A DNA stretch of 20,000 nt. Source: an uncultured virus (IMG/VR IMGVR_UViG_3300016662_000010) (lineage: Duplodnaviria > Heunggongvirae > Uroviricota > Caudoviricetes). The stretch lies in IMG/VR virus record IMGVR_UViG_3300016662_000010; one strand, given 5' to 3'. How positions within the stretch are numbered: the first letter of the stretch is position 1; the number at the start of each line of letters is the position of its first letter. Positions 7,219 to 12,833 of this stretch are shown in pieces. Under the pieces are notes generated by a model. That model worked only from the letters and a program-made list of their open reading frames with translations. It did not search any database and had not been told where the DNA came from. The translations under genes and the position numbers were made by a program.

Positions 7219-7728
7219 ATGGCCCTGCAAGTCATTTTGACCGAAGACGAAAGCCTTTCTGCCATAGAGGAGGCCCATCGTCGCCAAAAGACGAATGAAG
7301 CAAAAGGGCTATGGGGAAGGAATGGTGGGGCTAGAACTGGCGGCAAGGCCATTGAAATGCACGTTATGGGCGCCATGGGCGAAATGGCGGTGGCAAAGCA
7401 CTTGGGCCTTAAAGGCTTTCTTTATCAAGAGGCCGAAGCCAAGCGTGGTTCTGTTGACTTGCCGCCAGACATTGACGTTAAAACTCGCAAAGGCCATGAT
7501 CGTGACTTAATCGTGCAACTTTCTGACAGGCGAGATAAGCGTTATATTCTGGTTACTTGGATGAATCCCGCGCAGTTGTTCATTCATGGATGGATTAGTG
7601 GCGAAAAAGCTATGCAGCCACAATACATTCTTGATCCAGCGCGAGGGCGCAAAGCCTACTTTGTGCCACAATCTGTCCTTATGCCAATGACACATTTTGA
7701 CAATGCTCAAGTGCTCACAGTTTGCTGA
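7219..7728 (+). CDS. Phage hypothetical protein, possibly PD-(D/E)XK nuclease-like
   Basis: GAMGEMAVAKHLG...VDLPPDIDVKTR...IHGWI...AYFVPQ. Start at ATG 7219 avoids overlap with the portal start. Confidence 0.6.
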   Translation: MALQVILTEDESLSAIEEAHRRQKTNEAKGLWGRNGGARTGGKAIEMHVMGAMGEMAVAKHLGLKGFLYQEAEAKRGSVDLPPDIDVKTRKGHDRDLIVQLSDRRDKRYILVTWMNPAQLFIHGWISGEKAMQPQYILDPARGRKAYFVPQSVLMPMTHFDNAQVLTVC

Positions 7729-9529
7729 ATACGCCTTAGGCCTTACTTTATGGGATAAGCAGAAAGAAATTGTTGATGAATACTTCAATGGCACCAAAAC
7801 GCATGGTGTTTGGGCGCTTGGCCGCCGTTGTGTCACTGGAGACACGCTTATTACTACAAGTCAAGGAAACATAAAAATTAAAGAGTTAGCAGATCGCGGT
7901 GAGACGCTAACGCTAGAAGACGGAAGCAAATGGCAAACGTGTTCTGCACAAGTGGCCCAACTGGATGGCAGTTATGCTTCCGCAGAGCTTGTGCACGTTG
8001 GGGGAATAGAGCCAACCCGAAAAATTACACTAGCCAATGGCCTCTTTATTGCCGGCACTCTGGAACATCCCATCATGGTCATGGGAAGCAATGGAGCAGA
8101 ATGGAAGGAACTACAACATATCAAGACTGGCGATTTAGTTTTTACTGTTTCCATGAAAAGGAGCAATGGGCGAGAACTGGTGTCGGTAATTGGCAATGAC
8201 GAGAATGGGCTGCATCAAGTATTTGATCTACACGTTCCTAGTACAAATGCTTTTATTGGCAATGGCATCTGTAATCACAATAGCGGTAAAACTCTGCTTG
8301 CCGCAGTAGCGGCCCTCTATGTCTGCTTTGTCCTAGAAGAACGGTATAGGCGCAAAGTAAGAAAGAAAGAGAAGTGGTACATTGTCACTATTGCCAATGA
8401 TCAATCCCAAGCAAAGTTGGCCCTAAATAACATCCGTCAACTGCTCATTGACAGTCAGTTTGCCAAAGAAATCACCAGGGAAACTGCCACTGAAATTGAA
8501 ATCAGCAACGGCTGTGTATTCCAGGCAATTCCAGCCTCGGCCCGTGCTTCACGAGGTAAGGCCGTGGTCATGATCATCATGGATGAACTTGCGTTCAGCA
8601 TTGAAGGCGATGCCAACCGTGGCGCAAAGGCCATCTACACCGCTCTGTCCCCCTCCATTGCCCAGTTTGGTGACGATGGGCGAATCCTAGAGCTTTCATC
8701 GCCATGGCTCACGGACGGCCTGTTCTATGAACACTACTGCGAAGCTCAAAGTGGTGAATACAAGTTCATGCAAGCCATCAACATTCCAACATGGGAAATC
8801 AATCCCAACCTGCCGTGGGGCTGTAGTTTCTTAGAGGCAGAGCTTAAGCGCGATCCCGAGAAGTTCTGGGTGGAATATGGCGCCCAATTCTCCAAGAATC
8901 TATCAGCCTTGCTAGCGCCAGAAGTGGTGGAGGCAGCCGTAGACAAAAAGCGTGGCATCCTGTTGCCACAACGCGATTTCCAGAGCATGTACTACCTGGC
9001 CCTAGACCCCGCCAAAGGTGGTGTTGGCCGCGATAATTATACGGCAGCCATTGTCCACTACGAAGGTGAAACGCTAGTCGTGGACAAGTTCCATTCGTTT
9101 GATGCTGATTTTGAGATCAATGGTAAAAAGGAAGTCAATATCAAAGGAGTGGAGCAATGGATTGTGGAACACCATAAAGCCTATGGTTTCAAGGAAATTG
9201 TGCTTGACCAGTTCAATAGTGCTTCCACCATCCAAACGCTTGCCGAAAGTTTCCCAATTAGCGAACTGACGTGGAGTGTTTCCACTAAGATGAAGGCGTT
9301 TAGCAAGATGCGACAGTTGTTCAATGCTGGCCTGATCAGTCTCTATCCACATGAAATTGCAATCAAACAGATCAAAAACCTTAGCGTGGTGTATCGACAA
9401 TCAGGACAATGGACAGTGACTGGTGGTAAAGAAGCAAATGTTGACGACTATCCCTTTGCATTGGCTGCTGCCATCATGGTGGCATCAGAAGGTGATGATA
9501 TTGACTGGATCAATTCTTTAGTTCGCTAA
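7703..9529 (+). CDS. terL: Terminase large subunit, intein-containing
   Basis: Walker A GRR|SGKT split by an intein, Walker B MIIMDE, LSSP coupling motif, RNase H-like LALDPA...DN, DD near the C-terminus. Confidence 0.92.
   Translation: MLKCSQFAEYALGLTLWDKQKEIVDEYFNGTKTHGVWALGRRCVTGDTLITTSQGNIKIKELADRGETLTLEDGSKWQTCSAQVAQLDGSYASAELVHVGGIEPTRKITLANGLFIAGTLEHPIMVMGSNGAEWKELQHIKTGDLVFTVSMKRSNGRELVSVIGNDENGLHQVFDLHVPSTNAFIGNGICNHNSGKTLLAAVAALYVCFVLEERYRRKVRKKEKWYIVTIANDQSQAKLALNNIRQLLIDSQFAKEITRETATEIEISNGCVFQAIPASARASRGKAVVMIIMDELAFSIEGDANRGAKAIYTALSPSIAQFGDDGRILELSSPWLTDGLFYEHYCEAQSGEYKFMQAINIPTWEINPNLPWGCSFLEAELKRDPEKFWVEYGAQFSKNLSALLAPEVVEAAVDKKRGILLPQRDFQSMYYLALDPAKGGVGRDNYTAAIVHYEGETLVVDKFHSFDADFEINGKKEVNIKGVEQWIVEHHKAYGFKEIVLDQFNSASTIQTLAESFPISELTWSVSTKMKAFSKMRQLFNAGLISLYPHEIAIKQIKNLSVVYRQSGQWTVTGGKEANVDDYPFALAAAIMVASEGDDIDWINSLVR
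7829..8281 (+). mobile_element. Mini-intein (151 aa, no homing endonuclease)
   Basis: Begins CVTGDT, block B GTLEHPI, block F VFDLHV, ends HN followed by Ser+1. Removal restores GRRSGKT. Confidence 0.93.
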
Positions 9530-11162: not shown

Positions 11163-11191
11163 AGAATACCATGGACAGAACGGGAATGCAA
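11163..11191 (-). promoter_or_regulatory. Sigma70-like promoter
   Basis: TTGCAT-N17-TATTCT with extended -10 TG. Confidence 0.6.
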
Positions 11192-11224
11192 GAAAAAGGC
11201 CCCGGGATTGCCGTCCCGAGACCT
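11190..11224 (-). terminator. Rho-independent terminator
   Basis: AGGTCTCGGGA-CGGCAA-TCCCGGGGCCT followed by TTTTCTT; the G-U pairs work only on the minus strand. Confidence 0.8.
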
Positions 11225-11276
11225 GAGGTGATTCACAACCGAACCGGGGAGAGAGGCCCCAGCCCATCAGATCATA

Positions 11277-11351
11277 ACACCCAGGCGGGATTTGAACCCA
11301 CATCGTCCTGCAGCAGCAGAACCGTCTTGTCCAGTTAGCTCGGACTAGGTG
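11277..11351 (-). tRNA. Degenerate tRNA or tRNA-like element, anticodon undetermined
   Basis: Acceptor CACCTAG/CTGGGTG, T arm GTGGG-TTCAAAT-CCCGC, D-loop-like AACTGGA; the anticodon arm GTTCTG-CTGCTG-CAGGAC lacks a canonical 7-nt loop. Confidence 0.55.
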
Positions 11352-11665
11352 AGCAGCCTCCCGATTTGAGCATCGTTGAGAGGCTTGGGAGGATGGGTCC
11401 GTTGCAGTGGGGCTCGAAAGTCCATGCCAGTGGAACCATACTGTTCAGAAGGCGTCCCTTCTGGCCCGCAATCACGGGACTTATCCCAGACCAGGAAAGA
11501 ACGAACTAGAGTCGAACTTTAGAACTGGCTGGACTCCATCGACAGAGCAATGGAGGGAAAGCAATTCCAGTTGCCGGTCATTCCACCCCTGGGATGGAGT
11601 GGGAGTCGAACCCACAAAGGCCAGCCCCTAGGGGCCGCTGGGAGTTCCACCCAGATTGCTCATTG

Positions 11666-11694
11666 ACTATAGCGTCACTTGAGCCCTATGGCAA
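11666..11694 (-). promoter_or_regulatory. Sigma70-like promoter for the ncRNA unit
   Basis: TTGCCA-N17-TATAGT. Confidence 0.7.
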
Positions 11695-11750
11695 TGGTGA
11701 TGGGCTGACCGTGCCGCCCTCTAGGCTATCTGCCTAGCGCGTACAGAGGA

Positions 11751-12833
11751 TCAGCCTCCATCATTGGCTATTGTAGCTATACGACGCTGGCTAATTTCGT
11801 AGTACGCCTGTTCCTTCTCTATTCCAATAAAGCCAAACCCTTCCTCAGCAGCCGCAATGCCAGTCGTTCCACTGCCCATAAATGGGTCAAGGACGGTCCC
11901 GCCTGGGGGAGTCACAAGACGGCACAAGTAGCGCATTAGACTGAGAGGTTTGACAGTGGGATGATTGTTGCCTTCTCCACGTTCGCGCTTACTGGTTTTG
12001 GAGCAGTAGAAAAAGCGGGCAGCAGAGCCTAGTTGAACCACTACCTCGTCGCTGCCATTGTGGAGCAAGTTGGCGGGCCAGCGGCCAATGGATTCACCAG
12101 GGCGCTGCTCGTTGTAACTAGCGGGCCTGGCCGGCGTCTCCCAACCAGTCGCGCCAGTCGATGCGTTTGGGGCTGCGTGAGTGCGTCGCTCAACAGATGG
12201 TGATGGCTCGCCTTCCACCCTGCATCCATCCACGTTGATCCCTCCAGTCCCCCATTGCAGCACATTGGCAGCAACGGTTCCCTTAAATGGTTTGCGGGCC
12301 ATGGTGATAATTTCAGTGGCTGGTTTCAATGCCGTGCCCCATCCCTCCCATCGCTTTGCCTCATCAGTGACAGGTGCTGTGATCATCGCGCTATCTGGCA
12401 TTCCCACTGCACTCATGTTCAGCGAATTACCTCCAGCCTTGTTGCCAGCGGGATTGGGATGAAGGCCAATCACAGTTCGCTCTACGCCAGCGGCCTTGTC
12501 CAAGGCCTTGCTGATGTCCAATGACTTGGGAAATCCACTGCCATAATGCCACATCACAAGATCCCTAATCTCAAATCCTGCATCTTCAATTTTGATTGCC
12601 ATTCGATGCTGAGTACGAGTGCCAGCAAAAGCCAATAAGTGTCCACCAGGCTTCAAGACTCGCAAGCATTCAGCCCATATCTCCTCACTTGGCACGTCAT
12701 AATCCCATTTCTTGCCCATGAAAGAAAGGCCATACGGAGGGTCTGTGACAATGGCGTCAACAGAAGCATCAGGCATGGCCTTGAGTTCGTCTAGGCAGTC
12801 ACCATGAATCAAATGGGACGATGGAGAAGGCAT
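11751..12833 (-). CDS. DNA methyltransferase (N6-adenine/N4-cytosine, beta-type order)
   Basis: VTDPPY, RVLKPGG, GRWPAN, HPTVKP, LDPFMGSGTTG. Confidence 0.93.
   Translation of the reverse strand: MPSPSSHLIHGDCLDELKAMPDASVDAIVTDPPYGLSFMGKKWDYDVPSEEIWAECLRVLKPGGHLLAFAGTRTQHRMAIKIEDAGFEIRDLVMWHYGSGFPKSLDISKALDKAAGVERTVIGLHPNPAGNKAGGNSLNMSAVGMPDSAMITAPVTDEAKRWEGWGTALKPATEIITMARKPFKGTVAANVLQWGTGGINVDGCRVEGEPSPSVERRTHAAPNASTGATGWETPARPASYNEQRPGESIGRWPANLLHNGSDEVVVQLGSAARFFYCSKTSKRERGEGNNHPTVKPLSLMRYLCRLVTPPGGTVLDPFMGSGTTGIAAAEEGFGFIGIEKEQAYYEISQRRIATIANDGG

Follow-up and report, generated by a model that had tools for sequence, protein, structure and literature searches.

What is the role of a structured unit, seemingly devoid of protein-coding capacity, which lies on the minus strand of a cyanophage genome and was described in an earlier note as a transcription unit assembled from tRNA-like modules? 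The phage is related to Synechococcus phage S-CBS4, with which it shares the same gene order, the RNR alpha and portal proteins being 67% and 65% identical, respectively. In the window, meaning the whole 20,000 nt stretch of DNA that was analysed, the unit fills a variable slot with the RNR beta gene (here then a DNA methylase gene) on one side and a phosphoesterase gene on the other. Elsewhere in the window, the terminase large subunit gene (7697-9529, plus strand) appears to contain a short intein-like insert running from Cys to His-Asn, at approximately residues 45-195.

The non-coding unit extends from 11775 to 11190 on the minus strand, and no ATG-started ORF longer than 48 codons is present on either strand between 11190 and 11765, as expected from the previous description. 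That description had enclosed the unit within 11694-11190; the unit itself is real, but it starts approximately 70 nt further upstream, such that one module, M1 (11762-11699), was missed. A -10 box, TACAAT (P1; 11770-11775, minus strand), is located 7 nt before M1, where the DNA methylase gene has its final codons. The identical hexamer is found at the identical 7 nt spacing in a diverged relative contig with a loose end at 11762, and a similar box in the relative L009; P1 is a putative promoter. The sigma-70-type promoter originally proposed (P2; 11666-11694, minus strand) is present with a 10/12 match, the joint best, although its class of promoter-like sites is not above chance (21 observed versus 19.3 expected), and it is internal to the unit, because M1 with its own -10 box sits upstream; L009 has a -10-like box in the equivalent place after M1. 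The intrinsic terminator (11190-11224, minus strand), also correctly located, consists of an 11 bp hairpin (11224-11197) and a T run, is the best of 31 and is kept in the relatives L009 and L010. The nearest record, G001, has the terminator loop in inverted orientation (window 11197-11224 compared with L006), representing either a small inversion or an assembly artefact. The completeness of this record is 21%, and the M5-M7-abiF part of the unit that it seemed to lack coincides with an NN join, which is no evidence of a deletion. A pyrimidine-loop hairpin (11241-11265, minus strand) is kept in the closest relatives only.

The fold of a 476 nt stretch of the unit is only moderately better than that of shuffled sequences (z = -2.0; 2/100 shuffles as good). 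Seven different modules are arranged within the whole unit in the order M1, A, M4, M5, M7, abiF and C, with one copy of each; tandem repetition of a single antitoxin unit is absent, and five of the seven are not tRNA folds. An Rfam scan of the unit gave one match above cut-off, to the abiF module. Weak Rfam matches to tRNA-Sec, the Tymo tRNA-like structure and mascRNA all fall far below theirs.

The segment matched (11356-11392, minus strand) had been considered a simple hairpin, AGCCTCTC/GGGAGGCT, and is instead the abiF motif RF03085, aligned to the whole model (positions 1-37) with 57.3 bits against a cut-off of 37 (E 1.4e-8). Such motifs are reported to form an RNA that neutralises AbiF in cis and in trans by direct binding, which requires the integrity of the stem (10.1101/2025.04.15.648962), and, according to a review, the HEPN nuclease AbiF has AbiFr as its RNA antitoxin (PMC12737573). 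Here, abiF is followed on its 3' side by C and the terminator, with no Abi_2 toxin gene directly downstream; furthermore, neither Abi_2 (PF07751) nor the NYN protein considered below was found in any of five phage records (G001 and four complete relatives), two of the complete relatives carrying abiF. Judged by its sequence, the motif in the window is an orphan AbiF antitoxin-type RNA. The same stretch matches many mycobacteriophage records, including that of LittleE, in which it is intergenic among small hypothetical genes, and abiF is also positioned directly 3' of tRNA genes in three unrelated contigs. In these contigs (L001:1230-1350, L002 and L003), abiF is succeeded by another conserved, unnamed RNA-like motif that ends in a T run.

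The first module, M1 (11699-11762, minus strand), is a stem with a CUCU/AC internal loop; its host counterpart, in picocyanobacteria, is an RNA positioned at the 5' end of Abi_2 (AbiF-family) genes. In the window, the variable tip of M1 is a 5 bp hairpin with a 7 nt CNNAUAG loop; this type of hairpin (window 11711-11741, minus strand; L009, L014, L068 and L151) not only forms the M1 tip but can also be a module by itself, or the anticodon arm of a short tRNA-like fold in relatives. The M1 pattern matches at least 120 viral contigs, in many of which, among the matches listed, genuine tRNA genes of other phage types flank or adjoin it. By comparison, there were four matches in the GTDB collection, three without a paired stem; the fourth, in a Prochlorococcaceae genome (L214), has a TTGACA promoter in front of it and sits where an Abi_2 gene (PF07751, E 1e-45, with an RxxxxH motif) begins. 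Genes of this family are present in 19/401 genomes of the Prochlorococcaceae family, and a leader RNA is found right behind the promoter in 17 of the 19: three of the M1 type (L214, L228 and L229), eleven of an extended abiF type and three of a third, abiF-like type, although these leaders represent three clades only. In the remaining two genomes, the gene is either broken or a fragment at a contig edge. The Rfam abiF model scored two of the leaders at 30.7 and 29.1 bits, below its cut-off, and did not recognise M1, the stem core of which differs between the window and the host copy. The third leader type (L218, L219 and L234), just 5' of Abi_2, scores 29 bits, likewise below the Rfam cut-off, and none was seen in the phage loci searched.

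A comparable association is evident for M4 (11485-11556, minus strand), a two-stem RNA that constitutes the 3' part of a feature previously described as a loose cloverleaf, B (11583-11499). This is not a cloverleaf, and comprises M4 plus a weak hairpin; homologs keep the two M4 stems, a CUCUGU-loop hairpin and a long second stem, and not the TTCGACT motif on which a T loop had been proposed. A covariance model built solely from phage copies matched 19 of 151 cyanobacterial genomes at E <= 0.01. Strong matches (E ~1e-8) were found in three of the 151, each between a promoter and an NYN-domain gene, and the next five that were inspected were ordinary sequence; the three loci (L249-L251) are near-identical, and therefore amount to about one independent case. 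The NYN domain of this host partner is below the Pfam cut-off (E 0.0026) and has an ESM Atlas value of 0.97 (NYN 85%), while most homologs of the protein carry PF01936, and the acidic residues D126, D151 and D153 are invariant in 35 sequences. At 80 metagenomic loci (L285-L364) encoding NYN homologs 38-46% identical, the two-stem RNA is plain by eye. The phage-built model identified it in 28 of 70 NYN loci searched (E <= 0.05); every match was in the flanks, and two of them were a different upstream hairpin. A descriptor detected it in 64/80 loci, 52 upstream, seven upstream on the other strand and five downstream on the other strand, and in 0/480 coding windows, the figure of 64/80 being partly circular as the descriptor was written after seeing the loci. 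Within ~200 nt of the NYN gene (L285-L364; L249-L251), on either strand and across many bacteria, there is a widespread, conserved two-stem RNA that has no Rfam family; Rfam scans of 16 NYN-type loci returned no match at E <= 1. This NYN/LabA-DUF88 subfamily and its RNA form a candidate new RNA-antitoxin system, in which the layout suggests the protein would be the toxin and the RNA its antitoxin; M4 counts as an antitoxin mimic only if the pair is indeed a toxin-antitoxin system.

On sequence comparison, then, abiF, M1 and M4 can be shown to be toxin-less copies of RNAs that, in bacteria, are sited between a promoter and the gene for an AbiF-family HEPN or NYN nuclease. As three modules copy RNAs beside known or likely RNA-cutting bacterial defence toxins, it is probable that the array is a kit of decoy antitoxins to be mixed and matched, ending in a tRNA look-alike. 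We assign a probability of roughly 65% to the reading that it is a library of orphan antitoxin-mimic RNAs keeping host RNase defences off, with its tRNA-like folds serving as handles for processing or stability. A different explanation for the same associations is that the modules are protein-binding or attenuator elements through which host nuclease genes are autoregulated, and that their phage copies serve as cis elements or titrate regulation, with no toxin being neutralised. The leader position of the host copies is in keeping with this, as are the T-rich tails on 37 of the 52 same-strand NYN-linked copies, which could be attenuators, and the C. difficile RNA RCd22, which is reported also to act in cis (10.1101/2025.04.15.648962). 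However, the RNA is on the opposite strand in 12/80 NYN loci, and hence is a separate transcript rather than only a leader; the phage modules follow one another head to tail without intervening genes, M4 lacking a T run; and the activity of abiF in trans described in the same report is not that of a purely cis-acting element. We consider this explanation unlikely.

For the remaining modules, the search for host partners was less productive. M5 (11446-11482, minus strand), two adjacent hairpins that recur as an array module, matched 6/151 genomes with E values above 1e-3, in no case within a promoter-RNA-nuclease arrangement, and had no real match in 70 NYN loci. M7 (11396-11437, minus strand), a nested stem module with a UUCG hairpin, is found in nine viral contigs, all of them arrays, and in 0/151 host genomes using a low-diversity model. 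The core of M6, a module of relatives, was found in 0/201 genomes; a joint pattern for M6 and M7 was uninformative across 21 genomes. When viral sequences were scanned for M5 and M6, the matches were either arrays or due to chance, with no adjoining toxin gene in the contexts listed, and no host partner was found for A.

The two modules that do resemble tRNAs are A and C. The former (11592-11652, minus strand) is a 61 nt mini-tRNA fold with the acceptor and T arm originally described and, additionally, a single 6 bp middle hairpin. Pattern scans found no other homolog, four exact-pattern matches being unrelated, save for a freshwater metatranscriptome contig, ~90% identical and spanning 11274-11762, in which a compensatory T-stem change (11614 with 11600) is among the differences listed. 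The latter (11277-11351, minus strand) is confirmed as a tRNA-like cloverleaf, without an encoded CCA, in which the anticodon arm is a 7 bp hairpin with a 3-4 nt loop; five homologs have a 7-9 bp stem with a 3-4 nt loop at this position, not a 5 bp anticodon stem and 7 nt loop. Neither ARAGORN nor the Rfam tRNA model, RF00005, called a tRNA at A, B or C, and ARAGORN called none in the unit. tRNA-like folds can be processing signals, as in mascRNA/menRNA (RF01684), where such a fold is found at the 3' end of a longer ncRNA. The similarity is one of analogy only, a relative's terminal fold scoring 21 bits (E 0.086) against this model, far below the cut-off of 42.5.

These folds raise the alternative that the array consists mainly of tRNA mimics, soaking up anticodon nucleases or other tRNA-binding defences, as had first been envisaged. 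It draws on the tRNA-like character of A and C, on the presence of a tRNA-like end in 57 of 61 arrays, and on the movement of the anticodon-like CNNAUAG hairpin between scaffolds. Nevertheless, B is not tRNA-like and most of the unit is not tRNA-derived; C lacks the 7 nt anticodon loop that is the usual target; and at least four types of terminal fold can replace one another. While a decoy-type role is supported for the structured non-coding unit, no evidence was found for its tRNA-like parts being decoys of anticodon nucleases. As an account of the whole array, tRNA mimicry is therefore improbable, though A and C may have a tRNA-decoy role alongside an antitoxin-mimic library.

The behaviour of the array across relatives was surveyed in 82 regions, the best 80 of 242 RNR-beta relatives plus the window and S-CBS4, parsed by motif patterns. 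At least one module was found in 64/82 regions, in 34 different module strings of one to nine modules, the order of which changes; S-CBS4, an isolated phage, has a short form of the array. A non-tRNA module is present in 61 regions, the four of these without a recognised tRNA-like end being two that stop at contig ends, one that runs into a tRNA-Met and one variant missed by the patterns. Two-sided changes were found in 6/13 pairs of M1 (19 sequences), 7/16 pairs of M4 (13 sequences), 11/19 pairs of C (five distinct homologs, in which three stems are 100% paired) and 12/21 pairs of the short tRNA-like type of relatives (16 sequences). In each of the four sets, the covariation score was reached by 0/500 shuffles, with slid controls falling far lower, although these counts are not probabilities, as the sequences share kinship. 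The modules are not decayed tRNAs, because their stems covary; the uncompensated stem decay that would mark tRNA pseudogenes was not observed. A view of the array as a relic that no longer works, its modules left over from captured toxin-antitoxin loci and tRNAs after loss of the proteins, would accommodate the interruption of the array by two ORFs in L009 and L010 and the frequent loss of modules. It is very difficult to reconcile with compensatory changes in all four sets tested, window-specific ones included, or with a conserved slot with a promoter and a spread across several phage types, and we regard it as most improbable. A single large structured RNA or scaffold of the GOLLD, ROOL or manA kind, to which the whole-unit z of -2.0 and single promoter-terminator frame might have pointed, is scarcely credible for a shuffled array with no such Rfam match and no fixed multi-domain layout.

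Returning to the library of antitoxin mimics, the array would be transcribed from P1 and P2 during infection, supplying the abiF, M1 and M4 RNAs. Host AbiF and NYN RNases would then stay RNA-bound once the host's own antitoxin RNA decays, such that abortive infection might be avoided. A and C could be cut or protected by host tRNA-processing enzymes, freeing and stabilising the modules, and real tRNAs may play the same handle role for these modules in other phages. M5 and M7 might mimic the RNAs of further host systems, and the gain and loss of modules could track a patchy distribution of host defences, given Abi_2 in 19/401 genomes and the M4-NYN pair in 3/151. Expression is only hinted at by RNA-library contigs: relatives of the array occur in three RNA libraries from two studies, as contig-level presence that does not give strand, ends or level, as is also the case for strand and ends in the freshwater contig.

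The closest precedent among described phage systems is PhiTE, which is reported to evade ToxIN through pseudo-ToxI repeats, a phage ncRNA resembling a host RNA antitoxin in the absence of the toxin (PMC3475682); abiF and M1 likewise resemble host RNA antitoxins and lack the toxin. PhiTE, however, expands one repeat against one system (PMC3475682), whereas the window has different, shuffled modules, at least two protein families as counterparts, and a tRNA-like end. Similarly, RNA anti-CRISPRs (Racrs) are described as decoys, each a lone copy, in a virus, of a defence RNA of the host (PMC10651486), but the targets here would be stand-alone RNases, and no CRISPR-repeat match was found in Rfam. 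The type III-like AbiF-abiF/AbiFr toxin-antitoxin system shares with the window the full abiF motif and, through M1, the CUCU internal loop and location at host Abi_2 genes; in contrast, the window has no toxin gene after the RNA, has unrelated modules around it, and includes M1, which is not in Rfam. The C. difficile antitoxin is reported to have two abiF motifs (10.1101/2025.04.15.648962), compared with one in the window. An orphan abiF was also reported as a small RNA in cyanophage S-CREM1, near manA and wcaG RNAs, as an Rfam match without an antitoxin link in the portion of that account concerned with it (PMC9964418); the window lacks manA and wcaG. By analogy, the array probably works like the pseudo-ToxI and Racr decoys while belonging to no described system. 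No such array is named in the relevant part of a 2026 overview of phage counter-defence (PMC13728456), and no paper on a mixed antitoxin-RNA array or an NYN-linked RNA was found in the literature searched, which covered few subscription journals; single modules may be listed as unnamed candidates in the supplements of PMC5737381 and PMC10690425.

A broader and more tentative proposal, to which we give slightly less than even odds, is that cyanophages of several types draw on a common, exchangeable library of orphan antitoxin RNAs, which tRNA-like handles release, with each module marking a host RNA-inhibited nuclease. M4 would then denote a widespread, undescribed family of NYN-nuclease/RNA toxin-antitoxin systems, M1 would add a second fold to the AbiF antitoxins, and M5, M6 and M7 would stand for systems yet to be found. 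RNA-based counter-defence has so far consisted, in the sources consulted, of single-target cases, namely pseudo-ToxI and Racrs. Were the proposal true, the presence in wild cyanophages of an RNA cassette that is shuffled and aimed at several targets would make RNA-inhibited RNases a major and under-counted component of picocyanobacterial defence. The array could also serve as a finding list, one module having already pointed the way to a conserved NYN-RNA pair for which Rfam has no family.

When the unit or L024 was compared with plasmids by BLAST, only short matches appeared (E >= 0.6), and L053 against phages yielded only those with E >= 2; these negatives say little, because a BLAST search of an array against ten host-genus genomes missed even the known M1 copy. 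Several further arrangements were observed in other contigs. In L104 and L106, a tRNA-like fold with two T-loop motifs follows M1 and closes the first part of the array, after which come a second promoter and further modules. M2-like and M5 modules are directly 5' of a tRNA in L416 (620-800), a contig that comes from an isolate genome and differs in its gene context. Finally, the glutamine-II riboswitch (RF01704), which had no match above cut-off in the window, was found in 10 of 15 relatives scanned (L060:3930-3986, L044, L021, L046, L055, L042, L082, L053, L080 and L017), mostly adjoining a tRNA-Leu.
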